Positions 9,609-58,600 are shown, counted from the first letter of the stretch. The stretch is 64,000 nt of DNA from an uncultured Chloroflexia bacterium (GCA_963817745.1 CAWFPC010000008.1:67009-131008), one strand, 5' to 3'. Made by a program: numbers and translations. The notes: a model not told the origin generated them from the letters alone.

Positions 9609-9623
9609 GAGCGGCGAGCCGCG

Positions 9624-10329: not shown

Positions 10330-10842
10330 CGGGACTGGGGATCCTCTCCATCCGGCCTCGGGGACGGTCGCATCCGTCTTCCCCTAAAGGCACGCAAACG
10401 CGCCGGCACCCCACGGGGCGCATGGCGCGTCGTCGTCCGGCGGATGATATGCCCGGCCCCGAAGGGGTGTCAAACGCCACGGACCGGCGCGCGAGACCCG
10501 TCGGCGCTCGTGCGCGCGCGAGTGCGTGCTCGGCGAACGGCGTCGTCCGCCGGATCCGGGTCCTGGGAACCCATCGACCTGGGCGCTCGGGGGTCCGGGT
10601 CGCGACGTTCGGCGCTCGGGAGCTGGCGAGTTCGGATACCCCATGGGAGTATCGGAGAATCGCCTTGCGACGGCCCGAGCGGCGGTGCTATCCTCTCCGG
10701 GCCCTCGGCGCCGGGACGCCACGGGAGACCCGGTCACCTCGCGTTCGAGGGTCCCGGGACCGCAACGCCCGGATCGCCGGCATGGGTACCTCGAGACACT
10801 CGCGGACCCAGGTTCCCCGACCACGGACGTGGTCAGTCGCTA

Positions 10843-10852
10843 CCTATCCACG
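10843..10852 (+). promoter_or_regulatory. Putative DnaA box (CTATCCACG) in the dnaA promoter region
   Basis: 8/9 match to TTATCCACA, 30 bp upstream of the dnaA start. DnaA autoregulation is established knowledge. Confidence 0.3.
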
Positions 10853-10882
10853 ACCACCGTAGTTCAGGGTCCCATCGATCGA

Positions 10883-12277: not shown

Positions 12278-12734
12278 GCGCCGGCCCGCCACGGTCGGTC
12301 CGGGCACCCGTGCGACCCCGGGATTGTCGATAACCCCTGTCTGGCGGTGGACAACCGTCTCCCACTGTGGACATCTCGGCCGCGGCGCGTGGGCGAGCGG
12401 CCGGGTCGAGGTGGACGATCAGGGCCGATCCGGCGGTCGCCCGCGCCGGCGGGGTCCGCTGTCCACCGTGGGTCCCCGGGCGTGCCCCCGGATGGCGGCG
12501 TCCCGTCCACGGGGCACCCGTCATGGTCCACCGTCGATCGCCGCACGACCACGCACGACCATCCACGCGGTCCACACCATGATGACGGTGATGACGGAGT
12601 GAGAAGATAGAGAGAAGATACCCACGACCCGGTGGAGGCCCGGCCCGTGTCGCTTCGAACCCGCGACCAGCCCGTCTCGACCCCCGGTCGACCCCGCGAT
12701 CCCATCCGCAATCATTGTCTGGAGTGAACCCGAC
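12278..12734. other. Chromosomal replication origin (oriC) in the dnaA-dnaN intergenic region
   Basis: At least 7 DnaA-box-like 9-mers (GTGGACAAC, TGTGGACAT, GTGGACGAT, TGTCCACCG, GTCCACGGG, GTCCACCGT, GTCCACACC) lie in 12320-12580. Downstream is the lowest-GC stretch of the window (GAGTGAGAAGATAGAGAGAAGATACCC, ~12598-12626), a candidate DNA-unwinding element. Confidence 0.7.
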
Positions 12735-13853: not shown

Positions 13854-13945
13854 ATCGTCGGATCCTCGGGCCGATGGGGTCGCGGAGCTCCCCCTCGGAC
13901 CTCGGAGCGCGAGCGGCAGCTCACTGTTGAGGGTGCCGGTACCAC

Positions 13946-15083
13946 GTGCTTGATTCGATCTCGGCGCACGGACCTGCGCGGCTACGTGACGCTGGAGGCG
14001 ACGTTCGCGCCCGGGCCGCACCTCGTGTGGGGACCGAACGCCGCGGGCAAGACGAGCCTGCTCGAGGCGATCGCCCTGCTCGGCTGGGGGCGCTCGCACC
14101 GGACGTCGGCCGACGGGGAGCTGATCCGCTGGGGCCAGCCCGTCGGGCGGGTCGAGGGCCACGTCGGTGGCGAGGTGCTGGAGGTCGCGATCACGCGCTC
14201 CGGGGCCGACGGCAGCGGCGGGCGCAAACGGATCCGGATGAACGGCGTCGGCCGGCGCTCGAGCGTGCTGGGACGGACGCTGCGGGTCGTGCTGTTCGCG
14301 CCCGAGGAGATGCTGCTCGTCATCGGCTCGCCGTCGCTGCGGCGGACCGCGATCGACAGCCTGGCGGCCGCGCGTTCGCCGGCCTACGCAGACGATCTCG
14401 CCACGTACGGGCGGACGCTCCAGCAGCGCAACAGCCTGCTGCGCGCCATCCGCGAGGAGACGGCGACCCGCGACCAGCTCCGGTTCTGGGACGGCTCGTT
14501 CCTCGAGACCGGCGGACGGATCGTCGAGGCCCGGCTCGCCCTGCTCGACGCGATCGCCGAGCCGCTCGCCGCGGCGCATCGCGAGATCGCCCCGGACGAG
14601 GCCGCCGACGGTCTCACGCTCCGCTACGTGACCAACGCCCCGACGCTGGCCGGCGAGACGCCGCGTGAGGCCCTGGCGCGTCGGCTCGTCGAGACGGCCG
14701 ACAAGGAGGTCTGGAACGGGGCCACGCTCGTCGGGCCGCATCGTGACGACATCGCGTTCGAGCTCGGTGGTCGCGAGCTCGCCGGGTTCGCGTCGCGCGG
14801 CCAGCAACGGACGGCGATCCTCGCCTTCAAGCTCGCCGAGCTCGACCTGCTCACCGCCCTCGACGGCCGCGCCCCGTTGCTCCTGCTCGACGACGTCTTC
14901 AGCGAGCTCGACCCGGACCGGCGGGCCCACCTCGTGCGACGGATCGCGGCGCTGCCACAGGCGTTCGTCACGACGACCACCCTCGACGACCTCGACCCGG
15001 GCCTGCGGGCCATCGCGACGACCTGGGAGGTCCGTGCCGAGCCCGATGGCGCGACCCTCACCCGCGGACCGGGACCCGCATGA
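13946..15083 (+). CDS. recF: DNA replication and repair protein RecF; probable single-base indel in the first ~10 codons
   Basis: Walker A (GPNAAGKTSLLEAI), SMC-like signature and D-loop (LLLLDDVFSELD). The N-terminus reads VLDSIS... in one frame and ...TDLRGYVTLEATF in the next, consistent with an M-x-L-x-L-TDFR-type RecF start. Confidence 0.85.
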
Positions 15084-43092: not shown

Positions 43093-44616
43093 CTAGTGCG
43101 CCGCGCCGCCGCTCCGCGGCCGCGCGCGCCGTCCGCCTAGCCCGGCGGGATCGTCGCGATCGCCTGCGCGGCCTGCGTCGACCATGTCGAGGAGCGTCGT
43201 CGGGAACAGGCCGAACAGGATCGTGAGCGTGGTCGCGGCCGCGAGTCCGCCCCACAGCAGCGCCCCGTGGCGCAGCGCGGGCGCATCCGATGCGGGTTCG
43301 CGCATGAACATGTACACCACGACGCGCAGGTAGTAGAACGCGGCGGCCGCGGCGTTGAGGACCAGCAGGACGGCGAGCCAGGTCATCGCGCCACCGGCTT
43401 CCACCGCGGAGACGATCACCTCGTACTTCGCGAAGAACCCGGCGGTCGGCGGGATGCCGATCAGGGACAGCAGGAACAGGGTCATGAGCGCGGTCAGCAG
43501 CGGCTCGCGCCGCGCCAGCCCGGCGAACGTCTCGAGCGACGACGTCACCCCGGCCCGCTTCTGGAGCGCCGCGATGACCGCGAAGGCGCCGAGGTTCATG
43601 AACGCGTACGCCGCGGCATAGAAGAGGAGCGCGGTCAGGCCCTCGATCTGGCCGGCGGCGTAGGCCGCGAGCCCGACCAGCATGTACCCGGTGTGGGCGA
43701 TCGAGCTGTACGCGAGCATCCGCTTGACGTTGTCCTGCGTCAGCGCCACGAGGTTGCCGAGCGTCATCGTCAGGGCCGCGAGCACGATCACGATCGGCAG
43801 CCAGAACTCGGCCAGCGGGCCGAGGGCCTCGACGAACAGCCGCAGGATGAGCGCGAACGCCCCGACCTTCGGACCGACCGACAGGTAGCCCGTGATCGGG
43901 GTCGGGGAGCCCTGGTACGCGTCAGGCGTCCAGTAGTGGAACGGCACCGCGGCGATCTTGAACGCCACGCCGGTCGTCAGGAACGCCAGCCCCATCGCGA
44001 GGCCGGCGGACAGCGGCTCGTTGCCGGCCACGATGTCGGCCAGCACGCTGGCCACGCCGTCGACCCGGGTCGTGCCGGTCAGCCCCCACACGAAGGCGAG
44101 CCCGAACAGGAAGATCGCCGAGCTGAACGAGCCGAGGAGGAAGTACTTGATCGCGCCCTCGGTCGAGTAGGAATCGGTCTTGTGGTAGCCCGCGAGCAGG
44201 TAGCCCGGCAGGACCATGAGCTCGAGTCCGAGGAACAGCAGCAGGAGATCCGTGGAGCCGGCGATGAGCATCGCGCCACTCATCGCGAACACGAGGATGG
44301 CGGCGAACTCGGCGATCGGCAGGTTGCGTGGCAGGAGGTAGTCCGGCGCGAAGAGGATCGTCAGCACGATGATCGAGATGAACAGCACGTCGAGGAACGT
44401 CGTGAGCGCGTCGACCGTGTACGCACCGTCGAACGCCGTGGCCTCCGTCGCGCCGACGGCGATCGTCAGGAGGGCCGTGATGCCCAGTCCGAACAGCGCG
44501 GTCGCGATCGCGGCCGACGATCGACCGGGCCAGGCGATGTCGACGATCACGATCGCCGCGGCCGTGAGGATGGCCGCGATCAGCGGCGAGAGCGTGACGA
44601 TGTCCTGGAAGCTCAA
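43093..44616 (-). CDS. nuoN: NADH-quinone oxidoreductase subunit N
   Basis: 14-TM antiporter-like subunit with ...FHYWTPDAYQGSPTPITGYLSVGPKVGAFALILR...MLAYSSIAHTGYML. Last gene of the operon. Confidence 0.85.
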   Translation of the reverse strand: MSFQDIVTLSPLIAAILTAAAIVIVDIAWPGRSSAAIATALFGLGITALLTIAVGATEATAFDGAYTVDALTTFLDVLFISIIVLTILFAPDYLLPRNLPIAEFAAILVFAMSGAMLIAGSTDLLLLFLGLELMVLPGYLLAGYHKTDSYSTEGAIKYFLLGSFSSAIFLFGLAFVWGLTGTTRVDGVASVLADIVAGNEPLSAGLAMGLAFLTTGVAFKIAAVPFHYWTPDAYQGSPTPITGYLSVGPKVGAFALILRLFVEALGPLAEFWLPIVIVLAALTMTLGNLVALTQDNVKRMLAYSSIAHTGYMLVGLAAYAAGQIEGLTALLFYAAAYAFMNLGAFAVIAALQKRAGVTSSLETFAGLARREPLLTALMTLFLLSLIGIPPTAGFFAKYEVIVSAVEAGGAMTWLAVLLVLNAAAAAFYYLRVVVYMFMREPASDAPALRHGALLWGGLAAATTLTILFGLFPTTLLDMVDAGRAGDRDDPAGLGGRRARPRSGGAAH

Positions 44617-46275
44617 TGGGCCGCCGCGCCTTCCGTGGCCCCGGTCTCGGTCGGTCGGCCCTGGGCCAGGACCCAGCCGATCCGTCCGAGGATCCCGACG
44701 ACGAGCAGGCCCAGGATGACCAGCACCATGGTCGGGTCGAGCGCGATCGCCGCGCCGGAGCCCGCGGCCTCGAGCGTCGTCGTCGACGTGCCCGGCAAAC
44801 AGGTCGAGCAGGAGGCCCGGGCTGGATCCCGAACACCACGACGAGCGTGGCCAGCGGCACGAGGGTGAGGACCTCGGTCGGCGTCATGTCCGTCAGGTGG
44901 TCACCGAGGCTGGCCAGGAAGTCGGACACCTCGCCGAACACGATCCGGCCGTACATGTACAGCAGGTAGCCGGCCGCCAGCACCATCACGACGGTCGCGA
45001 TGGCGGCCGCCAGCCGGACTCACCTCGAACGTGCCGACGAGGGTCAGGAACTCCCCGACGAAGCCCGACAGCCCGGGCAGGCCGGCCGACGCGAACACGA
45101 AGAACCCGAACACCGCGGCATACACCGGCATGCGCGCCGAGAGGCCGCCCATCTTCGCGATCGTCCGGTCGTGGGTCCGTTCGTAGATGACGCCGACGAG
45201 CAGGAACAGGGCGCCGGTGATGAGGCCGTGGTTGATCATCTGCAGGATCGCGCCCTGGATGCCCTGCTCGGTGAAGACGAACAGGCCGAGCGTCACGAAG
45301 CCCATGTGGCTGACCGACGAGTAGGCGACCAGCCGCTTGAGGTCGGGCTGGACGAGGGCGACGATCGCGCCGTAGATGATCGCGATGAGCGAGAGCACGA
45401 TGATCGCCGGTGCGAACGTCTGCGCGGCGTCGGGGAAGAGCGGGATCGCGAACCGGATGAAGCCGTACGCCCCGAGCTTGAGCATGATCGCGGCCAGGAT
45501 CACCGAGCCCGCGGTCGGCGCCTCGGTGTGGGCGTCGGGCAGCCAGGTGTGGAACGGGAACATCGGCACCTTGATCGCGAAGGCGAGGAAGAAGGCCAGG
45601 AACGCCCCGAGCTGGAGCGCCGGTGCGAAGCCGCCGGTCGGGCTCATCGCGAACTCGCGCAGGACCTCGAAGTCGAACGCGCCGGTCCAGTCGCCACCCT
45701 GCGTCGTCGAGAAGGCGTACGCCGTCGCCAGGATCGCCACGAGCATGAGCAGCGAGCCGACGAGCGTGTACAGGACGAACTTGATCGTCGCGTAGATGCG
45801 GTTCGCGCCACCCCAGATCCCGATGATCAGGTACATCGGGACGAGGACGATCTCCCAGAAGATGTAGAACAGGAACATGTCCAGCGCGAGGAAGACGCCG
45901 ATCATGCCGACCTCGAGGACCAGGAACGCGATCATGTATTCCTTGATCCGGGTCGTGATCGGCTTGAAGCTCGCCAGGATGCTGATCCAGGAGAGCGTCG
46001 TGGTGAGCACCAGCAGGGCCGCGGACAGCCCGTCGAGCCCGAGCTTGAACTGGATGCCGAAGACCGGGATCCAGTCGTACGTCTCCTCGAACTGGAACCC
46101 GGGCGACGTCGGCAGGATAGCCCAGCAGGATCCACAGCGAGACGACCCAGGTCGCGAGCGCGAAGCCGAGCGCCACCGGTCGGGCGTACGACGCCGGCAG
46201 CACGGCCACGGCGATCGCGCCCAGCAGCGGCAGGAACGTGACGAGCGTGAGGATCGGCAGGCTGCTGATGTCCAT
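44613..46275 (-). CDS. nuoM: NADH-quinone oxidoreductase subunit M; 2 frame changes (~45995, ~44800)
   Basis: MDISSLPILTLVTFLPLLGA... then ...FHTWLPDAHTEAPTAGSVILAAIMLKLGAYGFIRF...LVAYSSVSHMGFVTLG. Confidence 0.8.
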
Positions 46276-46277
46276 CG

Positions 46278-48276
<1,999 letters not shown>

Positions 48277-48280
<4 letters not shown>

Positions 48281-48588
48281 TGGCGCATCGCGTCGTATTC
48301 GTCGACGAGCGGCGTCTTCTTGTTGCGGTAGATCGCGATGACGATGGCGAGGCCGACGGTGGCCTCGGCGGCCGCGACGGCCATGACCATCAGCGCGATC
48401 ACCGAGCCCTGCGCACCGAGGGCCGGGATGAAGGCCCCGAACGCGACGATGGAGAGGTTGACCCCGTTGAGCATCAGCTCGATCGACATGAGCATGCTGA
48501 TCGCGTTGCGCCGCGCCAGGAAGCCGAACGTCCCGATCGCGAAGAGGATCCCCGACAGGACCAGGTATGCGTCGAGGCTGTCGCTCAC
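48277..48588 (-). CDS. nuoK: NADH-quinone oxidoreductase subunit K
   Basis: 103 aa, 3 [39 protein letters not shown] is canonical NuoK. Confidence 0.9.
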
Positions 48589-49175
48589 GACGGGCCGCCC
48601 GGCTCGCGCTTGGCGAGGAAGACGGCCCCGATGACCGCCGCCAGCAGCAGCACGCTCACGATCTCGAACGCGAGCACGAAGTCGGTGAACAGCACCTGCG
48701 ACATGGCGTCGGTCGCCAGCCGGATGCGCTTGTCGACCTCGCCCCAGTCGGTCGCCGAGATCGCGAGCGCGATGAGGACCGCGATCACGACCGCCGCGAT
48801 CGCCGCGGGACCCGCCTGCGTCTGGAAGACGAGCCGCGCCGGCGCGTCCTTCGTCTGGGTGAGCATGATCGCGAAGAGGACGAGGACGCTGATGGCGCCG
48901 ATATAGACGATGACCTGCGCCGCACCGATGAGCGGGGCGCCCATCAGCACGTAGATCCCGGCGAGCGCCCCGAAGCAGACGATCATCGCGAGACCGCAGC
49001 GGATGATGTCGCGCATCGTCACGACGAGGAAGCCGGCGCCGATCATCACCGCGGCGAGGATCCAGAACAGCGCGTCCTCCCAGTCCTGGCCGAGGAACAC
49101 GAGCATGAGCACGGCGACGCCAAGGACGGTGCCCAGGACCACCAGCGCGACGAGGATGGCGAGGAGCGTGCGCAT
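48585..49175 (-). CDS. nuoJ: NADH-quinone oxidoreductase subunit J
   Basis: [24 protein letters not shown]...; 5 TM. ATG at 49175 was chosen within a longer upstream ORF. Confidence 0.85.
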
Positions 49176-49185
49176 CGGGCGGGCG

Positions 49186-51829
49186 CTACTCGTGCCCGCC
49201 GGGGCCGAGGGCGGCGACCGCCCCGTGGCCATCACCATGCCCGTGATCGTGGCCATGGCCGTTGCCACCGTTTCCGGCCGGGGTGCCCGCGACCGCGGCC
49301 GGGAGCACCGGGAGGAATCTGGTCGTGTCGATGACGCGGCCCTCGGCCGCGGCCCGGCTCGCCCAGTCGCGCTCGCGCCGGATGTAGGTGACCTCGGTCT
49401 CGCGATCGATCGACGCGAGCGCCATGAGATCGATGGTCGGCTCCGCCCGACCGGTATGGGCGAGCTCGATGTCGCCGCCGTCGCGCAGCGCGTCGTACGG
49501 GCAGGCATCGACGCAGATGCCGCACAGGATGCAGCGGCTCTCGTCGACCTCGTACTTCTCGAGGACGCGCGGCTTGGGCATGAGCGCGCCCGTCGGGCAC
49601 GTCTCGGCGCAGCGGCCGCACGACACGCACGGGGTGTCGTTCAGGCTCATGTCGAGCGGCGTGGTCACGAGCGTGTCGAAGCCGATCCGCATGAAGTCGT
49701 AGCACGCCGCGCCGACGACCTCGGAGCAGACCTGGGCGCACCGGCCGCAGTCGATGCAGCGTGACGGCTCGCGCAGGATGAACGCGTGGGAGTCGTCGCG
49801 GATGTAGTCGTGGTTGACGCCCGTGAAGCGGTTCTCGGTGACGCTCCGATAGCCCGCGCCCTGGTGGTGCGCCGGTTCGAGGGTCTGGAGCGTCGTGCCG
49901 TACTCGATGCCCAGCCGTCGCAGGTCGCAGAAGCCGATCGCCTCGCAGGTGCACTGCAGGCAGCGGGTCGACTCCGCGATGGCGGCCTCGCGGGTGTACG
50001 GCAGCTCGTACTCGATATAGCTGCTGTTGCGGAGGTCGGCCTCCAGCGCGGTCATCCGGTAGCGCGGTTCCTTGACCTCGCTCGTGAACGGCACGATCGA
50101 CAGGAACTCCGGCTGCGGCTCGGCCAGCGTCTGGCGCGTCCGGATCGCCGACAGGTCCAGGCCCTTGAGGAAGGCATCCACCGCGTACGCGGAACGCCGT
50201 CCCTCGGCGACGGCCTGGACCACGGTCGCCGCGCCGATGCGCACGTCACCCGTGCCGAAGACCCCCGGTCGTCCGGTCTCGAAGGTGACGGCGTCCGCCT
50301 TCAGGCGCCACTGCTTGGTCTTCTCTGGCCCCTCGTTGCCGGGCTGCTCCAGCCAGTCGAGCTCGGGGCCCTGGCCGATGGCCAGCAGCACCCGGTCGCA
50401 GGGGATCGTGAACTCGGTCCCGGGCGCGGGCTCCGGCCGTCGGCGTCCGGACGCGTCCGGCGCACCGAGCGCCATCCGGATGAACTCCACGCCGGTCACG
50501 TTCCCGTCGTCGTCGACCATGACCCGCGTCGGGCCGGCCTGGAAGATGGCGGTCACGCCCTCCTCGATGGCCTCGTGGACCTCGTCGGCGGCCGGCATGT
50601 CCTTCATGTCGCGGCGGTAGACGAGCGTGACCTCCTTCGCGCCCTGGCGGACCGAGGTGCGCGAGCAGTCCATCGACGTGAACCCGCCACCGATGACGAC
50701 GACCCGCTTGCCGACGTGATCGGGATACGGCAGCCCGAGCGTGGCCGTCCGCAGGTACTCGAGGCCGTCGAGCACCTCGGCGGCGTCCTCGTTGGGGATG
50801 CCGAGCTTGTTCGTGTCGTAGCAGCCGATGGCGACGACGACGGCATCGAAGCCCTGGTTCGGTCAGGTCGTCGAGCGAGAAATCGCGCCCGAGTCCCGCG
50901 TTGCAGACCATCTTCCCGCCGAGACGGGTGACCAATTCGTACTCCGCCTCGAGCACCTCGACCTTCGGCAGGCGGTACTGCGGGATCCCGTAGCGGAGCA
51001 TGCCGCCGGGCGCCGGGTCGCGCTCGAAGACCGTCACGTCGTGGCCGGCGATCAGGAGGTAGTAGGCGGCGCTCATGCCGGCCGGCCCTGACCCGATGAC
51101 CGCGGCCCGACGGCCCGACTTCACCTGCTGCTCGAACGGGACCGGCGGGTCCACGCCGTCGTCCAGCATGGACTTGAGGACCTGGTCGCCCGCGTAGCGA
51201 TGGGTGTCGCGGATGGCGATCGCCTCGTCGACCTCGTCGCGCCGGCAATGCTCCTCGCACGGTGCCGGGCAGACCCGGCCGAGGACGCTGGGGAACGGGA
51301 TCGTCCGCTTGAAGATCCGTGCCGACTCGCGGAAGTCGCCCTCGGCGTTGGCCTTGAGGAAGCCCGGGATGTCGATGTGGCTCGGGCACTTGTTCTGGCA
51401 CGGCGGCAGGCAGTAGGCGTTGTGGTCGCTGAAGATCAGCTCCAGGTTGGTCCGGCGCAGCCGGCGGACCTCCTCGGTCTGCGTCTGCACCTTCATCTCG
51501 GGCTCGCAGGTGCGCGAGCACGAGATCGGCGGATGCTCCTCGCCCTCGACCTCGACGACGCACATGCGGCACGCCCCGAACCCGGGCAGCTTCGGCTCGT
51601 AGCACAGGGTCGGGATCTCGATGCCGTTGTCGCGGCAGACCTCGAGGATCGTCTGGCCCTCGTAGCCCTCGACGACGCGGCCGTCGACCTCGATACGGAT
51701 CCGCGGGGTGGACTGCGGCCGCTGCGGCGACTGGGTGTCGAGCAGCCGCTCCGCCAGCGAATCGGCGTTCGTTCGGGCCGTCGTCGTCGGAAGGGGGCGG
51801 CCGTCGGGGCGGGCGATGGTGTCGGTCAT
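49186..51829 (-). CDS. Multi-cluster flavoprotein replacing canonical NuoG: NuoG-N-terminus-like [2Fe-2S] + His-ligated [4Fe-4S], a GltD-like FAD/NAD(P)H oxidoreductase core, a C-terminal 2x[4Fe-4S] ferredoxin domain and a His-rich tail; one frameshift near 50822
   Basis: IRIEVDGRVVEGYEGQTILEVCRDNGIEIPTLCYEPKLPGFGACRMCVVEVEG (N1b-like). SDHNAYCLPPCQNKC (H-x3-C-x2-C-x5-C, N5-like). GltD dinucleotide folds RRAAVIGSGPAGMSAAYYLL and KRVVVIGGGFTSMDCSRT. Then CIDCGRCAQVC..., CVSCGRCAETCP and CILCGICVDACP, ending PAGNGGNGHGHDHGHGDGHGA. ATG overlaps the nuoF stop (ATGA). Confidence 0.6.
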
Positions 51830-53122
51830 CAGGAGGCCTCGGTCGCGGCCGGCACGGGTGGGCGGGCAGGGTCCAACTCGGATGCGAAGTATCGCATCCC
51901 GCTGGTCAGCGGAAGGGTGGCCAGGCGCTCGTGGTCGCACAGGGCGGACGCCACGATGTCGGCGGCGAGATCGATGGCCAGGGCGTCGTCGGTGGGGCGG
52001 GTCAGGCCGCGCTCGCGGCGATCGACGATCTCGGCGAGGCGCTTCGTGCCGATCCGGCACGGGATGGTCTTGCCGCACGCCTCGGTGGAGCAGAAGCGGG
52101 TCAGCACCCCGATGAGCTCCACGAGATCGGTCCGGTCGTCGACGACGACGAGGGAACCCGAGCCCGAGATGCGCGCCCGCGGCGCGCAGGGTCGCGAAGT
52201 CATAGGGCGTGTCGAGCGCATCCGGGGGCAGCAGCCCGCCCGACGGGCCGCCGACGAGCACCGCCTTGAGCGTTCGCCTGGCCGGCAGCGCCCCGCCGAG
52301 GCCGACGATGTCGCGCAGCGGCGTCCCGAGCGGGACCTCGGCGATGCCCTGGCCGCTCGGCGTGCGAACCTGGACGAGCACGGTGCCCGGGCTGTCGCTC
52401 GTGCCGATCGCCCGGAAGGCGTCGGGGCCGTGGCGCACGATCCAGGGGACGGCGGCCAGCGTCTGGACGTTGTTGACGACCGTCGGCATGCCGAACAGCC
52501 CGCGTTCCGCCGGATGGGGTGGCCGCTGCTCGGGCTGTCCACGCTTGCCCTCGAGGGCCTTGAGCAGGACGGTCTCCTCGCCGAGCATGTACGCGCCCTG
52601 CACGGGCCGCACCGTGATGTGCAGGTCGTGCCCCGACGCGAGGACGTTGCTGCCCAGGAAGCCGGCATCGGTCGCGGCGCCGATGGCCGCGGCGACGCTC
52701 GCGATGACCTCGCTGTCCTCGGCGCGGACGGCGATGAACGCCTCGGTCGCGCCCACGGCGTACGCCGCGATCGCGAGGCCCTCGACGACGGCGAACGGGT
52801 CGCGGACGAGCAGCGTGCGATCGGTATGCGAGGCGGGATCCGCCCCGTACCCGTTGGCCACCACGTAGCGACGGGGCGCCTCCGTCCGGACCGCGGTCCG
52901 CCACTTCTCGCCGGTCGGGTAGCCGGCACCGCCTCGCCCGCGCAACCCTGACGCGGCGATCGTGGCGATCACCGCGGTCCCGCCGAGATCGCGCAGGGCC
53001 ATCCGGAGCGCGTCGAAGGCGCCGTCCGCCACCGCGGCATCGAGGTCCGTGGGATCGGTGGCGCGCGCCCGCGCGAGGAGGATCGTCGGCCAGTCGGCCG
53101 GCGTCGTGAGGAGTTCGGTCAT
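51829..53122 (-). CDS. nuoF: NADH-quinone oxidoreductase subunit F (51-kDa FMN/NADH-binding subunit); frameshift near 52135
   Basis: GLRGRGGAGYPTGEKW (FMN/NADH site), GYGADPASH..., LAIAAYAVGATEAFIAVRAED, and a C-terminal SLBB/4Fe-4S region (...RFCSTEACGKTIPCRIGTKRL...SALCDHERLA). Confidence 0.85.
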
Positions 53123-53841
53123 GGCGTTACGCCCTGGCCGGAGCGCCGGAGCGCCCGCCCCCATCCGACGTCTTGCCGCGCCCGCCGCGCCGGCCACCGC
53201 CGAGCGCGCTGTCGAGGGCCGCGAGATAGCTCGACTTCGGGCGGACGTTGGTCGCTCACCGCGGTCGCCTGCTCGACCGATGCCGGTGGCTCGAAGCGCA
53301 GGTGCGCGTAGTAGCTCGCCGTCCCGTAGATCATCGCGTACCAGGCGCCGGTGGCGTGGCTGATGCGCTTGAGCGCCGCCACCGGGAGGTAGCCGTAGGC
53401 CGTCTGCGTCGCCTCGAGGATCTCGAGCATGCGGGCCGGATCGTGGTCGTACTCCTCGAGGATCGTGTCCACGACGGCGAGGTCGACCGGCGCGAACGGC
53501 ACGTACGCCGGATCGGGCACGGGCCGGCCGGAGCGACGCAGCGCGGATTCCTCGCGGCGCTCGCCGTACGTCTCCGACGCGCCCCAGTGGACGTGGTAGC
53601 GCCCGCGGGTGTCGATGCCGCCCATGTCGATGCATTCGATCGGACACGCCTGGGCGCACTGGAAGCAGGTCTCGCACTTGAGCGTGCCCCACTCGTCGTA
53701 GAGCAGCTGCAGCCGGCCGCGGAACTTGTGCGGGACGTCGACCCGCACCTCGGGGTACATGACGGTGACCTTGGGCTCGAAGAAGCGGCGCAGGGTCAGG
53801 GCCATGCCCTTCGCGATGCCCAGGCCCGGGATGAGCGTCAT
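53119..53841 (-). CDS. Chimeric ORF: NuoI N-terminal half (one [4Fe-4S] motif only) fused in frame to a NuoE-like N-terminal helical domain that lacks the thioredoxin-like [2Fe-2S] domain
   Basis: MTLIPGLGIAKGMALTLRRFFEPKVTVMYPEVRVDVPHKFRGRLQL...LKCETCFQCAQACPIECIDMGGIDTRGRYHVHW is NuoI up to just before cluster 2. Then ...VDLAVVDTILEEYDHDPARMLEILEATQTAYGYLPVAALKRISHATGAWYAMIYGTASYYAHLRFEPP is the NuoE N-domain. No Cys occurs in any frame between 53123 and 53300. ATG overlaps the nuoH stop. Confidence 0.5.
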   Translation of the reverse strand: MTLIPGLGIAKGMALTLRRFFEPKVTVMYPEVRVDVPHKFRGRLQLLYDEWGTLKCETCFQCAQACPIECIDMGGIDTRGRYHVHWGASETYGERREESALRRSGRPVPDPAYVPFAPVDLAVVDTILEEYDHDPARMLEILEATQTAYGYLPVAALKRISHATGAWYAMIYGTASYYAHLRFEPPASVEQATAVSDQRPPEVELSRGPRQRARRWPARRARQDVGWGRALRRSGQGVTP

Positions 53842-55187
53842 GGCCGCAGCGTCTTGAAGACGACGATGGCCGTCGCGGTGACGAACAGGTTCAGCAGCGA
53901 CGCCGGCAGCAGCCACTTCCAGGCGAAGTCCATGAGCTGGTCGATGCGCACGCGGGGCAGCGTCCCGCGCATCCACACGAACGTGAACACGAAGACGTAC
54001 GTCTTGCCCATGAACCAGAGGATACCGGCGACCCAGTCGAGGCCGATGTACGCCCACGCACCGATCAACGTCACGATGAACAGGTTGGCGAGGACGAACC
54101 CGGCGATGAGCGCCTGCCAGCCCTTGACGCGTGAGCTCGCGAGCCACACGGGCGCCGCGAAGAGCAACGTCAGGACGACCGGCACGATCCCGATGAACAG
54201 CAGCAGGCCGATCCCGGCGGATCCGGGGTCGATGTTCAGCTCGATCGGCCACGGCCACGGGAACGGCGCGTTCCAGCCACCGAAGAACAGCGTGACCATC
54301 AGCGCCGACATGATGAAGACGTTCACGTACTCGGCGAAGAAGAAGAAGCCGAAGCGCATCCCCGAGTACTCGGTCGCGAAGCCGGCCACGATCTCGGAGT
54401 CGGCCTCGGTCAGGTCGAACGGCGTGCGGTTGGCCTCCGCGGTCGCGGCGATGAAGAAGATCAGGACACCCAGCGGCTGCTGGAAGACGTACCACTCGGT
54501 GAACCAGCCGGACTGGTTCAGGACGATCTGGTTGAGGCTCATCGTGCCGGCCAGCAGGATCAGTCCCACGACCGACAGCGTCAGCGGGATCTCGTAGCTC
54601 ACGACCTGCGCCGCGGCCCGCAGGCCACCGAGCAGCGAGTACTTGTTGTAGCTCGCCCAGCCGCCCATCAGCAGCCCGACGACCCCGAGCCCGCCGATCG
54701 CGAAGAAGTACAGCAGCCCGAGGTTGAAGTCCTGGCCGTAAAGGCCCGGGGCGAAGGGGATGACGAGGAGCGTCATCACGCTGGCGAGGTAGACCACCAC
54801 CGGCGCCCAGGTGAAGACGATGGGATCGGCCCCGGTCGGGGTGAAGTCCTCCTTCATGAGGACCTTGAGCCCGTGCACGACCGACAGGAGCGAGCCGAAC
54901 GGTCCGACCCGGTCAGGGCCGATCCGCAGGTTCATGAGGGCGATGCCCTTCATCTCCATGTAGATGATCAGGAACGCCGTCGGGATGGTCATCAGCAGGA
55001 TGACGGTGACCGCCACGACGAAGCGGACGATCGGCAGGTTGTCCTCGAGGATGGCGAGGATCGGCCCGCCGAGGATGGCGATCGCCGCGACGAGCCCGAT
55101 CGTCATCGCGATCAGCAGCGGGACGATCGTGAACACGACCTTCCCCGGGAGGGTCAGCCGCCCCCAGCCCTTGGCGATGACCGTCAT
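53838..55187 (-). CDS. nuoH: NADH-quinone oxidoreductase subunit H (with a ~75-aa N-terminal extension carrying 2 extra predicted TM helices)
   Basis: EMKGIALMNLRIGPDRVGPFGSLLSVVHGLKVLMKEDFTP... (canonical NuoH entry), ...AEANRTPFDLTEADSEIVAGFATEYSGMRFGFFF. Confidence 0.9.
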   Translation of the reverse strand: MTVIAKGWGRLTLPGKVVFTIVPLLIAMTIGLVAAIAILGGPILAILEDNLPIVRFVVAVTVILLMTIPTAFLIIYMEMKGIALMNLRIGPDRVGPFGSLLSVVHGLKVLMKEDFTPTGADPIVFTWAPVVVYLASVMTLLVIPFAPGLYGQDFNLGLLYFFAIGGLGVVGLLMGGWASYNKYSLLGGLRAAAQVVSYEIPLTLSVVGLILLAGTMSLNQIVLNQSGWFTEWYVFQQPLGVLIFFIAATAEANRTPFDLTEADSEIVAGFATEYSGMRFGFFFFAEYVNVFIMSALMVTLFFGGWNAPFPWPWPIELNIDPGSAGIGLLLFIGIVPVVLTLLFAAPVWLASSRVKGWQALIAGFVLANLFIVTLIGAWAYIGLDWVAGILWFMGKTYVFVFTFVWMRGTLPRVRIDQLMDFAWKWLLPASLLNLFVTATAIVVFKTLRP

Positions 55188-55319
55188 GTCGATGCCCCAA
55201 GCCGGTGCTCGGACGAGTCAGGCGAAGGCGGCGGGGAGCACGAGAGCGAGCGCACTCCAATGTGCGTGAGCGAGCGCGCGGACCCGTCAACGCACGCATC
55301 GGCCGTCCCAGTGCCGGCG

Positions 55320-56550
55320 TCACTTGTCGACGCCGCCCATGATCGGATCCAGCGAGGCCATCACGGCCATGGTGTCGGCGATGAGGTGACCTGGCGTCAT
55401 CACGCCGACGGCCTGGAGGTGGATGAACGAGGGATCGTGGATGCGCATGCGGAACGGCTGGTCGGTCCCGTCGCTCATGACGTACGCCGCGTACTGCCCG
55501 CGCGGTCCTTCGATGCCGGCGTAGGCGCGTCCCGGACGCGGGCGGAGCAGCCGCGGTAGCTTGGCCGTGACCGGCCCGTCGGGCATCTCGTGGAGGCACT
55601 GGTCGATGATCCGCAGGCTCTGCTTGATCTCGTCCATCCGCAGCAGGTAGCGCGCGAGGCAGTCGCCCTCGGTCCGCGTCGGGATGTCGAAGTCGAGCTC
55701 GGGGTAGGCGCTGTACGGATGCGCCCGCCGCACGTCGAAGGGCACGCCCGGTCGCCCGCAGGTTCGGGCCGGTCATCACCATCCGCAGCGCCGTCGCCGA
55801 TCGATCTTGCCGAGGTCGCGCATCCGGCGGACGAAGATCTCGTTCTCGTTGAGCAGCGCGTTCCCGGCCTCGATCTGCTCGGTCGCGTGGCTCATCCAGT
55901 CGCCGAGACGGCTCAGGAACTCGTGGTTGAGGTCGCCGTTCACCCCGCCGATGCGGAAGTAGTTGAAGAGCATCCGCTGGCCGGTGAGCGACGCGAGCAT
56001 GTCGACGATCTCGTCACGCTCGATGAACGACCACAGGATCGGGGTCAACCCGCCAAGGTCGAGCGCCATCCAGCCGAGGAACAGGGAATGGCTGGCGATC
56101 CGGTTGAGCTCGGCCGAGAGCACGCGGATGTACTCGGCCCGGCGCGGGACCTCGACGTCCAGGAGCTTCTCGAAGGCCATGACGCCGGGCCATTCGCAGA
56201 ACAGCGAGCTGACGTACTCGAGCGGGTCGAGGTAGCAGATCGCCTGGTGGTAGTCCGCGTTCTCGCACAGCTTCTCGACCCCGCGATGGAGGTAGCCGAG
56301 CACCGGGTCGAGGTCGACGACCTTCTCGCCGTCGAGCTTGAGCACGACGCGGAGCACGCCGTGCGTCGACGGGTGCTGCGGGCCCATGTTGATGAGCATC
56401 TCGCCGTCGCGCAGCGTGTAGAACTCGGCCTCGCGCTCGGTCCGCGGCGGGTACGGCGGGACGGGCTCGAACACGCCGAGCTCGCGGTCGAGCGTGACGC
56501 GCGGGTCGTCGGCGGAGGCGTGGCCGGGTCGCGGGGTCGTGGCGGTCATC
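55320..56550 (-). CDS. nuoD: NADH-quinone oxidoreductase subunit D (49-kDa); short segment near 55745-55780 in a third frame
   Basis: LINMGPQHPSTHGVLRVVLKLDGEKVV...YLHRGVEKLCE...TGPNLRATG...C-terminal ...RIHDPSFIHLQAVGVMTPGHLIADTMAVMASLDPIMGGVDK*. Confidence 0.85.
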
Positions 56551-56580
56551 TCGGGTCCTTGGCGGTCGCTGGGGCGGGGG

Positions 56581-57128
56581 TCAGCTGCCGGACCGGCGGA
56601 CCGGGGCGGCCACCGGTGCATCGTGCGGGGTATGGGTCCGTTCCATCGGCCGAACGCCGCCACCCGGCGAGCGGGCCGCGTCGTCCGCGAGATAGAAGTC
56701 CTTGCGCAGCGGGAAGCTCGTGTAGTCGGGCGGCATGTAGATCCGGCGCAGGTCGCGATTGCCCTCGAACGTGATCCCGAACATGTCGTACGCCTCGCGC
56801 TCCATCCACTCGGCGCCCTTCCACAGGAAGGTCACCGACGGGACGCGCGGATCGTCGCGCGGCATGCCGTCGGCGATCACCCGCAGCCAGTCGCTCGTGG
56901 AGTCGCTCCACAGGTGGTAGACGACCTGCATCACGCTGCCGGTGTCGACCCCGGCGAGATCCGCCAGGAACTCGAACCGCAGGTCGGGCTCGTCGTGCAG
57001 CGCGGACATCACGCGGACGACGTCGCCCGGCGCGATGCGCATCTCCGTCTCGTCGTGGCGCTGACGGATGGGTCCGGTCAGCTCGGCGGCGAAGCGCGCC
57101 TCGAGACGCGCCTTGAAGGCGACATCCA
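56581..57128 (-). CDS. nuoC: NADH-quinone oxidoreductase subunit C (30-kDa)
   Basis: ...VMQVVYHLWSDSTSDWLRVIADGMPRDDPRVPSVTFLWKGAEWMEREAYDMFGITFEGNRDLRRIYMPPDY. GTG start 3 nt after the nuoB stop. Confidence 0.85.
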
Positions 57129-57131
57129 CGC

Positions 57132-57773
57132 CTAGACGTCCTCCGGCACGTTCGGTCCGATCGCACGCTCCGGCCAATGACCGCGGCGGTCCTTGACGAG
57201 CTGCTGGAGCTTCATCATCCCGTAGATCAGGCCCTCGGGCCGCGGCGGACAGCCCGGCACGTAGACATCGACGGGCATGACGCGATCGATCCCCTCGACC
57301 GTCGCGTAGCTCCGCTTGTAGCGGCCGCCCGAACAGGTGCAGTCGCCCATGGCGACGCACCACTTCGGCTCGGGCATCTGCTCCCAGAGCCGGACGAGGG
57401 GGCCGGCCATCTTCGTCGTCAGCGTGCCGGCGACGATGAGCACGTCGGCCTGCCGCGGACTGGCGCGGAACGGGAACATGCCCCAGCGATCCATGTCGTT
57501 CTTGGATGTCGCCGTCGACATCATCTCGATCGCGCAGCACGCGAGCCCCGACAGCAACGGCCACAGGCTGTTCATCCGGATGAGGTCGAGGACGTAGTCC
57601 GCCTTGGTGGGGATGACCTCGAGGACGCCGCTCCAGCGGCCGTCGTCGCGCCGCCCGAGGCCGCTCGCCTCGTATTCGCGCAGGTGGGTGATGTCGCTCT
57701 CGCGGCCGCCGTCGTAGGCGGCGGGATCGGCCGCCTGCCAGAGCGTGTTCGGGACGACGATCGGCGCGAGCAC
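57132..57773 (-). CDS. nuoB: NADH-quinone oxidoreductase subunit B (20-kDa, N2 cluster)
   Basis: [18 protein letters not shown] and PGCPPRPE, the canonical N2-cluster ligand motifs. Confidence 0.9.
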
Positions 57774-57845
57774 GTCGCGCGAGGACGTCGTCGCGACCGC
57801 GCTGTCCGGAAGCCTTCGTACCCTTGCCGCTCCGTGTCTTCGGGG

Positions 57846-58208
57846 TCATCGCCACGACAGGGCTCCCTTCCGCCAGGCGTAGGCCAGGCCGAGCAGCAGG
57901 ATCACGACGAAGATCAGCATGCTGATCAGGCCACCAAGCAGCAGGTCCTGGAAGGCGATCGCCCAGAGGTAGATGAACACCACCTCGATGTCGAACGCCA
58001 CGAACAACAGGGCGTAGATGTAGAACGACAGGCCGAACCGGCCGTGGGTGTCGCCGTAGGTGTCGATGCCCGATTCGTAGGGCAGGCCCTTGTGGACGTC
58101 GCCTCGGTTGCGGTGGGAAACGAGCCACGCGGCGCCGATCGTCAGGAAGACGAAGCTGACGCCCGCGAAGGCGAAGCCCACGACGTACCAGATGCCAGTC
58201 AATCGAAC
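57846..58208 (-). CDS. nuoA: NADH-quinone oxidoreductase subunit A (alternative longer start at 58277)
   Basis: 3 TM; GLPYESGIDTYGDTHGRFGLSFYIYALLFVAFDIEVVFIYLWA is canonical NuoA. Confidence 0.8.
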   Translation of the reverse strand, partial: VRLTGIWYVVGFAFAGVSFVFLTIGAAWLVSHRNRGDVHKGLPYESGIDTYGDTHGRFGLSFYIYALLFVAFDIEVVFIYLWAIAFQDLLLGGLISMLIFVVILLLGLAYAWRKGALSWR

Positions 58209-58600
58209 TCCCTTGCGGGGGCTCGCCACCGGCGCCGAGGCCGGACCCGAGACCCCCTGGGCGGGCGTGGGGCGCACCGCACGTCGGTCGCCCGTGCCCA
58301 GTCCATTCTAGCAGCGGGCACGCTCGCGCCGGGGCGACGGCGAGGGTGGGCGATCGGGGGTTTCGGAGCCGGGACGACGCTCGGTGTCGGGCGCGTCACG
58401 GGAGTGGGATCCGCGCGCGTGGCCAGGGGCGCGCGGCGACATCTGGGTCCCGGCGATGGAGGAGGTCGGGGAACGAAGCGCGCCGAGCGCGCGTGCAGGT
58501 TCGCGCTCCGTTCCCCGGCGGTGGGCCGTGCGACGGCCATGGCAAGCGTGGCGGAGCGGGCCTCCGGGCTGCAATAGGGCATTCGCCCTATATCGCCTAC

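Follow-up and report, generated by a model that had tools for sequence, protein, structure and literature searches.

A Chloroflexota complex I operon with NuoI split around an StnABC-like electron-input module

In a 64,000-nucleotide stretch of DNA from an uncultured Chloroflexia bacterium of soil (GCA_963817745.1 CAWFPC010000008.1:67009-131008; hereafter the window), the nuoI gene of a complex I operon is cut at the loop that separates its two cysteine motifs, with an StnABC-like module of NuoE-, NuoF- and NuoG-type components lying between the halves. Hundreds of related Chloroflexota species carry such a complex I, in which the core Fe-S subunit NuoI has been halved and the halves fused to a borrowed flavoprotein module of the NADPH type. 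A literature search found no published description of this arrangement, in agreement with a preliminary description of the window, made from its sequence, which had called it undescribed.

Organization of the operon

On the minus strand the genes run nuoABCDH, gene 1, nuoF, gene 3 and nuoJKLMN, with no separate nuoE, nuoG or nuoI within the operon. None of the flanking genes (nuoA, B, C, D, H and nuoJ, K, L, M, N) is missing, and their order is collinear. Directly upstream of the rewired module is nuoH (449 aa; 53838..55187, minus strand; Pfam NADHdh, E 8e-106), whose product is 85% identical to its counterpart in locus L001, and directly downstream of gene 3 is nuoJ (196 aa; 48585..49175, minus strand; Pfam Oxidored_q3; collinear with L001), followed by nuoK, L, M and N. 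The preliminary description had therefore correctly reported canonical, collinear flanks and a module embedded in a complex I operon, and the coordinates and strand that it gave for the three genes are confirmed.

Gene 1 reads as an ORF of 240 aa (53841..53119), in which a 1-nt indel near 53235-53245 throws the final ~35 residues out of frame; the true stop is the TAA at 53129-53127, giving 237 aa (53127..53841, minus strand), with ~225 aa in relatives (2939 homologues; the top 120, likewise of ~225 aa, share 84-92% identity with it). Profile and structure matches identify a fusion of the N-terminal half of NuoI to the N-terminal domain of NuoE, so that the NuoI/NuoE fusion with a single cysteine motif proposed earlier stands, and only its length of 240 aa does not. 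The NuoI half (aa 1-95; 53557..53841, minus strand) matches TIGR01971, positions 13-87 of 180 of an NCBIfam NuoI profile (with residues 9-82) and residues 5-68 of the Nqo9 chain 2fug_9; it retains the NuoI-specific N-terminal segment and holds the sole CxxCxxCxxxCP motif of the protein, C56-x2-C59-x2-C62-x3-C66-P. The second part (aa 118-187; 53281..53490, minus strand) is an N-terminal helical domain of the NuoE/StnA type, closest to 9bov_C (best match, residues 20-89, E 9.5e-12) and StnA, in which residues 125-187 cover only positions 2-64 of 145 of the 2Fe-2S_thioredx/NuoE profile PF01257. A frame scan found no cysteine past residue 70 and none in the other frames before nuoF, as had been claimed for the site of the NuoE [2Fe-2S] domain; the thioredoxin-like [2Fe-2S] (N1a) domain of the NuoE/StnA homologue has been lost.

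The nuoF-like gene (51829..53122, minus strand; Pfam Complex1_51K and NADH_4Fe-4S, core only) is interrupted by an extra G at 52163-52165, without which it encodes 430 aa, and its stop shares one base with the start of gene 3 (TGATG). It had been described as ordinary, which does not hold. Among solved structures it matches Bfu B subunits best (9bov_B, E 1.9e-96, over residues 107-508 of 584), and it lies nearest to 9bov_B, NfnB, HydB and StnB (E ~1e-96, versus ~1e-78 for the best respiratory NuoF). Pfam and structure alignment detected no additional Fe-S domains, N3 being its only cluster. The canonical N-A-D-E-x-E-P-G is replaced by N-G-Y-G-A-D-P-A, with loss of Glu95, a residue reported to be strictly conserved, and the N3 cysteine spacing is unusual (C-x4-C-x5-C). 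These variant motifs are kept in relatives: N-[AG]-Y-G-A-D is common to L085, L087 and the Limnocylindria, and most of its carriers lack the thioredoxin-like domain of NuoE or have an atypical one, while relatives with a canonical NuoE retain the canonical NuoF motif. Conserved across the lineage are the FMN phosphate loop GLRGRGGAGYP, GAYMLGEET and the four N3 cysteines; overall, conservation within the module is lowest for NuoF (61-83% identity).

Gene 3 (49186..51829, minus strand) encodes 880 aa once one extra base at 50856-50857 is removed, and is the most conserved member of the module (85-93% identity across 61 loci). Pfam places Fer2_4 at 43-118, Fer4_20 at 140-219, Pyr_redox_2 at 242-543, Fer4_Nqo3 at 684-749 and Fer4 at 759-782, and the protein is collinear with 9bov_A over residues 44-776 (E 2.6e-160) and with StnC (8oh5_C) over 43-779 (E 1.1e-139). 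It begins with a NuoG/HydA-type [2Fe-2S] domain (aa 43-118; 51476..51703, minus strand; PF13510 Fer2_4, E 8.3e-20; C76, C87, C90, C104), followed by a GltD/NfnB-like core (aa ~125-630; 49939..51457, minus strand) that is recognised by Fer4_20, Pyr_redox_2, PRK12814 (E 3.6e-162) and NfnB/GltD structures. This core carries [4Fe-4S] motifs (C140/144/148 and C187/191/195), an FAD fold (GSGPAG, 246-251), a second dinucleotide fold (GGGFTSMD, 380-387) with YRR at 404-406, and ends in C623-x2-C-x-C-x5-C634. A NuoG/HydA-type ferredoxin-like dicluster domain follows (aa 684-752; 49573..49779, minus strand; positions 4-66 of 67 of PF22117 Fer4_Nqo3), whose cysteines (C691/694/697/701 and C734/737/740/744) align to those of HydA, StnC and Nqo3, and then the C-terminal half of NuoI (aa 753-835; 49324..49572, minus strand). 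The size, [2Fe-2S] domain and GltD FAD/NAD(P)H core reported for this fusion were confirmed, but the N5-type motif was matched only partially (NADH-G_4Fe-4S_3, 19.8 bits against a 27-bit cut-off), and the supposed C-terminal 2x[4Fe-4S] ferredoxin consists of three cysteine motifs, namely the dicluster pair and the unpaired motif of the NuoI half. The protein ends in a tail rich in His, Gly, Asn and Asp (GNGGNGHGHDHGHGDGHG...GPGGHE; 49189..49272, minus strand; His/Gly stretch at 852-869), which is variable in sequence, usually with 5-8 His, and present in nearly all of the Limnocylindria-type loci recovered (about 55).

A NuoI in two halves

The two NuoI-like segments are complementary. Against TIGR01971, gene 1 covers positions 1-63 of 121 and the C-terminus of gene 3 positions 71-114 (50.6 bits each), and when joined in silico the halves cover positions 1-114 in one stretch. 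The joined halves score 100.1 bits in the window, 117.1 in L084 and 103.8 in L087, which puts L084 above the profile's cut-off of 113.05 bits and the window just under it. They also align without a break to the 169-residue solved TYKY chain 7ar7_I, over its residues 23-158 (E 1.4e-21). A single-sequence AlphaFold model of the joined halves had a pLDDT of 32, too low to be informative. Taken separately, the gene 3 half matches TIGR01971 and residues ~99-158 of many solved NuoI/TYKY chains, its motif (C766-x2-C769-x2-C772-x3-C776-P) being followed by the NuoI-specific C-terminal segment. The motif count also supports the split: the dicluster domain takes up two of the motifs of gene 3, so that genes 1 and 3 are each left with a single unpaired one. 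The eight NuoI cysteines are invariant across lineages that are only 30-40% identical, and among the more distant versions, those with an intact or almost intact downstream gene (L084, L085 and L087) all have NuoI split in the same way.

The NuoI half at the end of gene 3 had been overlooked in the preliminary description. The NuoI part of the Fe-S relay, which had been thought incomplete, has its second CxxCxxCxxxCP motif at the C-terminus of the 880-aa protein; of the incomplete NuoI and NuoE relay once proposed, only the N1a cluster of NuoE is truly missing in this lineage.

Sequencing errors and conservation

The contig is error-prone: single-base indels number one each in gene 1 (in its tail), nuoF, gene 3 and nuoM and two in nuoL, and the sequence of nuoD is garbled in one patch. 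It could be argued from this, as was considered earlier, that the chimeric ORFs arose through a misjoin, through collapse of a repeat or through sequencing errors, in a genome with normal nuoI, nuoE and nuoG. The indels, however, do nothing but break reading frames, and comparison with relatives, whose genes are intact, identifies the three in the stretch from gene 1 to gene 3 as sequencing errors. A frameshift-free contig of 2.36 Mb has the identical gene order, and its proteins are collinear with and 77-88% identical to the corrected ones. The order nuoH–fusion–nuoF–GltD fusion–nuoJ and the fusions themselves recur in 61/61 related loci long enough to be informative, from independent short- and long-read assemblies, as well as in distant relatives. 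The comparative data refute the artefact reading, to which we assign a negligible probability: the arrangement is real.

Relatives were found in at least 516 species-level genomes, those examined belonging to the Limnocylindria/Chloroflexota; distant versions are located in nuo operons, some with the NuoE cluster intact and some with GltD fused elsewhere. This spread, the recurrent gene order and the conservation of the gene 3 fusion indicate a genuine, conserved complex I variant of Limnocylindria-type Chloroflexota that is under selection.

Comparison with known complexes

The membrane arm and quinone module genes are those of the canonical 14-subunit complex I (NuoA-N; Thermus Nqo1-14, E. 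coli, mitochondrial core), in collinear order, and a NuoF-type flavoprotein, NuoG-type N-terminal clusters and the eight NuoI cysteines are likewise shared. In contrast to the canonical enzyme, NuoI is made as two separate chains, each as part of a fusion with another subunit; of NuoE only the helical domain is left, without N1a; NuoG lacks the entire molybdopterin-like C-terminal domain and contains a GltD FAD/NAD(P)H insertion; the Glu95 region of NuoF is altered; and the E-F-G genes interrupt nuoI and are found between nuoH and nuoJ instead of between nuoD and nuoH.

The subunit logic is that of Stn/NfnABC (Bfu-related) enzymes, as had been suggested, and 9bov, 8oh5 (StnABC) and 9n5u (NfnABC) are the best solved matches for all three proteins. 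The order of an E-like protein, an F-like protein and a [2Fe-2S]-GltD-NuoG-cluster protein is the same, gene 3 follows StnC and 9bov_A collinearly from residue 44 to ~755 (E 1e-139 to 1e-160), up to where the C-terminal domain of those proteins starts, and the FAD-site Arg (StnC R239) is conserved. Unlike these soluble transhydrogenases, the module lies within a membrane complex I operon, half of NuoI takes the place of the formate-dehydrogenase-like domain of StnC, and the A/C-type subunit lacks its [2Fe-2S] cluster. StnC K170, a cluster ligand reported to be strictly conserved (PMC10482914), is replaced by His, and C114 by Ile. The B-type subunit lacks the N-terminal [2Fe-2S] and C-terminal 2x[4Fe-4S] domains of StnABC/NfnABC, so that both a ferredoxin site and a bifurcating core are missing.

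A GltD-type NAD(P)H flavoprotein also occupies the position of NuoI in Mbx-like operons, which are related to that of complex I (Degli Esposti 2015, PMC4758237). There, the gltD-related protein is described as replacing NuoI in an Mbx-type complex that reduces NAD(P)+, whereas here NuoI is retained in split form, together with a NuoF/NuoG-type module and the full Nuo membrane arm.

Proposed electron path and alternatives

The complex is likely to be a two-flavin NAD(P)H:quinone oxidoreductase that pumps protons, in which quinone would be fed through a NuoI reassembled from its halves, without ferredoxin or bifurcation. The halves would associate in trans to give a NuoI with the usual two clusters, N6a and N6b, each of which requires three cysteines of one motif and a fourth supplied by the other. 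The input module would thereby be covalently tied to the quinone module, replacing the scaffold of NuoG's large C-terminal domain; the NuoI C-half joins exactly where the inactive formate-dehydrogenase-like domain of StnC would begin. Electrons would enter at the GltD FAD, probably from NADPH by analogy with Stn, Nfn and GltD, a specificity suggested by homology and the retained YRR motif, with a second entry probably at the NuoF flavin, from NADH. Both inputs would converge at the hub of NuoG-type clusters and exit by the C1/C2 branch, a dead end in Stn (PMC10482914), continuing via N6a/N6b and N2 to quinone and driving proton pumping. Whether the putative NuoF site oxidises NADH is open to question, given the loss of Glu95, the odd N3 spacing and the low conservation.

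These same features would suit an enzyme in which the GltD FAD is the sole working site (for NADPH or NADH), and the NuoF- and NuoE-like parts serve mainly as scaffold and tether for the NuoI N-half. Neither the Glu95 region nor the adjacent N1a cluster has been kept, conservation within the module is lowest in NuoF and highest in the GltD fusion, and the N-[AG]-Y-G-A-D variant mostly tracks with a missing or atypical thioredoxin-like domain; a pure scaffold would nevertheless be expected to have decayed further than a protein with an intact FMN loop, GAYMLGEET and N3 ligands, and we regard this as rather unlikely. Still less probable is an energy-linked transhydrogenase equilibrating NADH and NADPH through the shared hub, or a PMF-driven reduction of NADP+ by quinol. 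Stn, with FAD and FMN on one cluster chain, has NADPH:NAD+ activity and without ferredoxin equilibrates NADH and NADPH at a low rate (PMC10482914). Both flavin sites are apparently retained in the module, but the operon encodes a full proton-pumping complex I and no result here indicates reverse flow. That complex I context, in host MAGs which we take to be mostly aerobic soil heterotrophs, counts against such a mode.

An electron-confurcating complex I of the Bfu type, oxidising NAD(P)H together with reduced ferredoxin, would fit the finding that all three subunits are closest to Bfu-family structures. Nuo-Bfu complexes have been predicted in Geobacter, Planctomycetes and Nitrospirae, and Mbh-Bfu in Dehalococcoides (Schut et al. 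2022, PMC9304861), and that work likewise describes a NuoEFG-like/Bfu module in the middle of complex I- or Mbh-type genes, proposed to feed the membrane module. Those are 14-subunit (A-N) and 9-subunit clusters with a full BfuBC core, whose B and C subunits hold five clusters and one, respectively, and the available text makes no mention of a split NuoI or of a GltD domain for Nuo-Bfu. Here the core is absent, the F subunit having N3 only (equivalent to BfuB residues 107-508 of 584) and the E-like part being cluster-free, so that membership of the bifurcating Bfu enzymes is rejected, the ferredoxin link proposed earlier finds no support, and the confurcating reading retains very little probability. 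Only marginally more credible is that the terminal motif of gene 3 is a generic ferredoxin and the NuoI part of gene 1 a decayed remnant, leaving a complex without N6a/N6b that would be inactive or otherwise wired. Ferredoxin motifs are promiscuous in searches, and the top structure matches of the C-terminal region include polyferredoxins. The NuoI match nevertheless runs past the motif into the NuoI-specific C-terminal segment (7ar7_I residues 99-158), the halves cover non-overlapping parts of the profile, and the invariance of the eight cysteines and the N-terminal segment kept in gene 1 likewise speak against decay.

Gene order and sequence errors

The genes of interest all lie on the minus strand of the window, which has a G+C content of about 70%. 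In a frame plot of third-position G+C the coding frame switches more often than gene boundaries permit, and three-frame translations trace these switches to single-base insertions in short homopolymer runs. Specifically, there is an extra G in nuoF (52163-52165), one extra base in the fusion gene downstream of it, gene 3 (50856-50857), and a one-base indel in the tail of the gene upstream of it, gene 1 (near 53235-53245). When the proteins of an intact relative are mapped on the window, two indels appear in nuoL (near 46826 and 46390), one in nuoM (near 46110) and a garbled patch with two in-frame stops in nuoD (about 55773-55778). Single-base indels are numerous across 43100-58300. The preliminary description had rightly called this contig error-prone; since the genes are intact in relatives, the indels are sequencing errors of the kind typical of long-read assembly, and their effect is limited to broken frames.

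In the corrected order nuoA, B, C and D lie 5′ of nuoH (55187..53838), followed by gene 1 (53841..53127; 237 aa corrected, 240 aa as read), nuoF (53122..51829; 430 aa corrected) and gene 3 (51829..49186; 880 aa corrected). Directly after gene 3 comes nuoJ (49175..48585), with nuoK, L, M and N on its 3′ side, all on the minus strand. Pfam matches cover NuoA, B, D, H, J, K, L and one antiporter-like subunit, and all 13 gene products of an intact reference locus (C, M and N included) are collinear on the window at 69-93% identity. As in complex I, NuoA, B, C, D, H, J, K, L, M and N are encoded together; the window operon has no nuoEFG between nuoD and nuoH, their usual site.

A NuoI subunit divided between two genes

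Over residues 9-82 the gene 1 product matches NuoI in its N-terminal half (profile positions 13-87 of 180), with a single CxxCxxCxxxCP motif and with Nqo9/TYKY as the best solved matches. Its second part is most similar, among solved structures, to the NuoE-like subunits of 9bov and StnABC (8oh5), and residues 125-187 cover only the first 64 positions (2-64) of the 145-position NuoE/thioredoxin-like ferredoxin profile. No cysteine follows the NuoE helical part in any frame, and relatives of gene 1 stop at about 225 aa, so the thioredoxin-like [2Fe-2S] (N1a) domain of complex I NuoE is absent, as had been noted from the sequence at the outset. At E ≤ 0.001 gene 1 has 2939 homologues in the database. 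The top 120 are 84-92% identical and about 225 aa long; their source records call them 'ferredoxin', 'NuoE' or 'hypothetical', and several are from Candidatus Limnocylindrales.

The missing part of NuoI lies at the other end of the module. After its dicluster domain the gene 3 product carries a third CxxCxxCxxxCP motif (C766-C776), which with its flanks corresponds to positions 71-114 of 121 in the NuoI profile TIGR01971, and dozens of solved NuoI/TYKY chains match this C-terminal region with their residues ~99-158, the NuoI-specific segment behind the motif included. The final two Cys motifs of gene 3 were not taken for a single dicluster domain: Fer4_Nqo3 already pairs 691-701 with 734-744, which leaves C766-C776 unpaired, like the lone motif of gene 1. 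In dicluster ferredoxins each cluster is held by three Cys of one motif and a fourth from the other, and therefore neither NuoI half can bind a normal cluster alone.

For an in-silico construct, residues 1-80 of gene 1 were joined to residues 752-841 of gene 3. Against TIGR01971 the separate halves score 50.6 bits each, whereas the joined halves score 100.1 bits (cut-off 113.05) in one stretch over positions 1-114 of 121. They also align as a single stretch to residues 23-158 of the 169-residue TYKY chain 7ar7_I (E 1.4e-21). Halves joined in the same way from two distant relatives reach 117.1 bits (L084) and 103.8 bits (L087), each in one end-to-end stretch. An AlphaFold2 model of the joined halves, made without an alignment, has a pLDDT of 32, too low to be of use. 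Where complex I has a single-chain NuoI with two CxxCxxCxxxCP motifs (clusters N6a and N6b), the window has two halves in two proteins 3.8 kb apart, with all eight NuoI cysteines present, in trans only. Judged by its sequence, nuoI is split between its two cysteine motifs, with the genes of the NuoE-like, NuoF-like and NuoG-like parts (E′, F and G′) inside it, rather than truncated. The rewired module of the preliminary description is thus borne out by the gene anatomy in corrected frames, while its incomplete NuoI relay becomes a split one, with the second half at the C-terminus of gene 3.

The StnC-like core of the fusion protein

The gene 3 product begins with a [2Fe-2S] domain, continues with a GltD-type core (two [4Fe-4S] motifs and two dinucleotide folds) and a four-Cys motif, and then enters a NuoG/HydA-type dicluster domain. 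The product is collinear with the first ~700 residues of 9bov_A over its residues 44-776 (E 2.6e-160) and with StnC over its residues 43-779 (8oh5_C, E 1.1e-139); residues 40-574 align with the NfnA chain 9n5u_A, and PRK12814 matches with E 3.6e-162. This is the StnC/NfnA layout: [2Fe-2S], GltD (two [4Fe-4S], FAD and NADPH), then NuoG-type clusters. The motif HNAYCLPPCQNKCP, initially described as N5-type, does have a Pfam match, but this is partial, below the cut-off and runs into the GltD Fer4_20 domain, and it was not retained as a clean N5 motif.

The molybdopterin-oxidoreductase-like C-terminal domain of complex I NuoG is absent. No Molybdopterin or Molydop_binding match occurs among the best 25 of 30 Pfam families, residues 43 to ~835 are all taken up by other domains, and the alignment to StnC and 9bov_A ends at the start of their C-terminal domain.

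Conservation of the GltD FAD site is good: the counterpart of the Arg R239 of StnC is kept, and a YRR motif still follows the second Rossmann fold. By homology with Stn, Nfn and GltD this site probably uses NADPH. Lys170, a ligand of StnC cluster C7, is reported to be strictly conserved in StnC sequences (PMC10482914); the gene 3 product differs in having His210 at this position (about 51200-51202), as do the relatives L085 and L087 in having His, and StnC Cys114 is replaced by Ile154. These two exchanges may tune the potential of the cluster beside the FAD.

The protein ends in a low-complexity His/Gly/Asn/Asp tail (49189-49272, minus strand; GNGHGHDHGHG...), usually with 5-8 His and often ending in GPGGHE. 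Almost all of the recovered Limnocylindria-type loci (about 55) have a tail of this kind, variable in sequence; the distant relatives L084 and L087 have none. The tail might bind a metal or have a role in assembly.

Flavin site and N3 cluster of NuoF

The nuoF product has the FMN domain Complex1_51K (E 5.7e-40) and the N3 domain NADH_4Fe-4S (E 2.2e-15) in Pfam, and scores 350.9 against TIGR01959 (cut-off 558.65). Its nearest solved relatives are Bfu-type B subunits (9bov_B, NfnB, HydB and StnB; E ~1e-96), ahead of the best respiratory NuoF (E ~1e-78). Since it aligns only to the core of these subunits (residues 107-508 of 584 in 9bov_B), their extra Fe-S domains are missing; the whole protein has four Cys, enough for one cluster. 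The N3 cysteines (residues 344-355, about 52060-52095) are spaced C-x4-C-x5-C...C instead of the usual C-x2-C-x2-C...C.

It is at the NADH site that the two-flavin enzyme proposed below meets its strongest rival, a single-flavin enzyme, which rests on doubt whether this NuoF still oxidises NADH. The site motif (residues 90-102, about 52817-52855) reads NGYGADPAS instead of NADExEPGT, that is, N-A-D-E-x-E-P-G has become N-G-Y-G-A-D-P-A with loss of Glu95. The FMN phosphate loop, the GAYMLGEET motif and the four cysteines are retained, and both the N3 spacing and the NADH-motif variant are kept across Limnocylindria loci. A similar NAYGAD is found in L085 and L087, and the canonical motif is kept in L082 and L084, relatives with a canonical NuoE. 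Glu95 has been called strictly conserved, its peptide bond flipping between FMN and the N1a loop (PMC6560083), and the sequence comparison makes the loss of Glu95 and the loss of N1a look like a coupled change.

Conservation and variants in relatives

The preliminary description had raised an assembly artefact as one explanation of the arrangement and had proposed searching related genomes for the same order. An unbroken 2.36-Mb contig of a relative carries nuoABCDH, a NuoI-N/NuoE fusion (225 aa), NuoF (432 aa), an 886-aa fusion protein and nuoJKLMN without frameshift. A scan of one genome per species, with a five-sequence alignment as the query, yielded a relative in at least 516 genomes. The best 80 loci were compared together with the locus on the 2.36-Mb contig, and in all 61 loci long enough to show the order it is nuoH, NuoI-N/NuoE, nuoF, the fusion gene with the NuoI C-half, and nuoJ. 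The contig and the 61 concordant loci refute an artefact. Across loci the fusion protein is best conserved (85-93% identity) and NuoF least (61-83%). Organism names, where the sources give one, are Chloroflexi/Chloroflexota or Limnocylindria.

A profile-free search of 1.8 billion cluster representatives recovered full-length NuoI-N/NuoE fusions down to 30% identity. All of these distant fusions have a single Cys motif and again sit in nuo operons; in their NuoE part the cluster motif (VCxGTxC...CxGxC) is intact in some, degenerate in some and missing in others. The low-G+C locus L084 (Logan SRR22388304, 1321-6023) represents another sub-type, with nuoH, a NuoI N-half fused to a complete NuoE, a 1048-aa protein, a 265-aa protein and nuoJKLMN. 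The 1048-aa protein combines a thioredoxin-like 2Fe-2S domain, NuoF and GltD, so that GltD is on NuoF and not inserted in NuoG, and the 265-aa protein joins a NuoG N-terminus to the NuoI C-half. This sub-type is rare, since the 265-aa protein has only one close relative (78% identical) among 5.8 billion sequences, the other matches being ordinary short NuoG/FdhA-like proteins. L087 and L085 resemble the window arrangement. In all three sub-types examined NuoI is split, with the N-half joined to NuoE and the C-half to the NuoG-type cluster protein, and the position of GltD varies.

Two loci depart from the common order. In L087, from a distant Chloroflexi MAG (GCA_016190715.1, JACPPZ010000003.1, 6481-14281), nuoABCDH, the NuoI-N/NuoE gene, nuoF and the fusion gene are followed not by nuoJKLMN but by genes for a flavin reductase, a GYD protein, a ferredoxin and a pyruvate:ferredoxin oxidoreductase, and the membrane-arm genes must be elsewhere or absent. 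L060 (JANOTJ010000375.1, 5046-9981; same MAG as L016) has a second NuoI-N/NuoE-nuoF pair without nuoH upstream, preceded by the gene of an 856-aa GltD-like protein with C-terminal dicluster motifs of its own and only 32% identity to gene 3. It may represent a second locus with different wiring, a mixed bin or a misassembly of short reads.

Comparison with known systems

The usual picture of complex I is one of 14 core subunits that do not vary from bacteria to mitochondria. The window system would work like complex I, but it departs from four of the textbook subunit definitions, namely a single-chain NuoI, a NuoE with N1a, the NuoG C-terminal domain and the canonical NuoF motifs. In subunit logic and sequence the module is like Stn/NfnABC, from which it differs in lacking the FdhF-like domain in gene 3, with the NuoI C-half in its place. 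Assembly of the Stn tetramer needs this C-terminal FdhF-like domain (PMC10482914).

What defines the Bfu family (Schut et al. 2022, PMC9304861) is a BfuBC core that does not vary, BfuB having five Fe-S clusters and BfuC one [2Fe-2S]. The window module differs: the nuoF product has the cysteines of one cluster, E′ has no cluster domain, and the domains credited with ferredoxin binding are missing. Since the BfuBC cluster set is lacking, bifurcation or confurcation linked to ferredoxin is unlikely. The published ideas that come nearest are the 'Nuo-Bfu' and 'Mbh-Bfu' complexes, which have been predicted (PMC9304861), and mbx-like operons in which a gltD-like gene takes the place of NuoI (PMC4758237); the available portions of these two papers describe neither a split NuoI nor a module of the window type. 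No description of a split NuoI, a NuoI-NuoE fusion or a Limnocylindria complex I was found in open-access papers and bioRxiv.

Proposed mechanism and origin

In StnABC electrons pass from NADPH over FAD, C7, C6, C5, C4 ([2Fe-2S]) and C3 to B1 and FMN, and a side branch (C2, C1) leads into an inactive formate-dehydrogenase-like domain that has been called a non-functional remnant (PMC10482914). The NuoI C-half begins in gene 3 exactly where this domain would begin. In the proposed mechanism electrons would enter at the GltD FAD, probably from NADPH, the two NuoI halves would reassemble into N6a/N6b, and the 'dead-end' branch would become the exit, through N6a/N6b and N2 to quinone. The halves would also serve as covalent tethers, the N-half through E′ to NuoF and the C-half to G′, keeping the input module on the quinone module and replacing the scaffold of the lost NuoG C-terminal domain.

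The E-F-G′ gene order is that of stnA-B-C, and each of the three products resembles Bfu/Stn subunits more than respiratory NuoE, F and G. In the simplest history an stn-like operon would have inserted in frame into nuoI of an 11-subunit-type complex I, in the loop between the two motifs; loss of the FdhF-like domain would have followed and, later and in the window lineage, loss of the N1a domain. If so, the N-module was gained independently of the canonical one. Taken as a whole, the reading is a tentative one, with the balance leaning somewhat against it: an 11-subunit ancestor would have acquired an NAD(P)H-oxidising head independently of nuoEFG, by an stnABC-like operon in frame in nuoI, giving a natural proton-pumping two-flavin NADPH-/NADH-quinone oxidoreductase held together by a split NuoI. 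This enzyme may serve Limnocylindria as their main or sole complex I.

Limnocylindria are a globally abundant soil and freshwater class, and the complex I variant is new and widespread in this abundant but uncultured lineage. This variant has a natural split in a core Fe-S subunit and can dispense with N1a and the large NuoG domain, and a second flavin, of NADPH type, appears wired into the chain. Should the enzyme work as proposed, it would be a native NADPH-respiring proton pump, something similar having so far been approached, to our knowledge, only by engineering NuoF, and a second, independent joining of an electron-input module to the ancestral 11-subunit enzyme. It offers a natural test case for the purpose of N1a and the NuoG scaffold, for N-module docking and for use of the Stn 'dead-end' branch. 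In a very abundant soil lineage, annotation that depends on separate nuoI and nuoG would probably rate complex I as incomplete.

Genomic setting

By eye, from translations only, a YidC-like gene (8442-9623, minus strand) is seen in the window, followed on the plus strand by dnaA (10448-12274), dnaN (12603-13850) and recF (13854-15080). From these genes, a chromosomal replication-origin region seems to lie inside the window, about 30 kb from the nuo operon.
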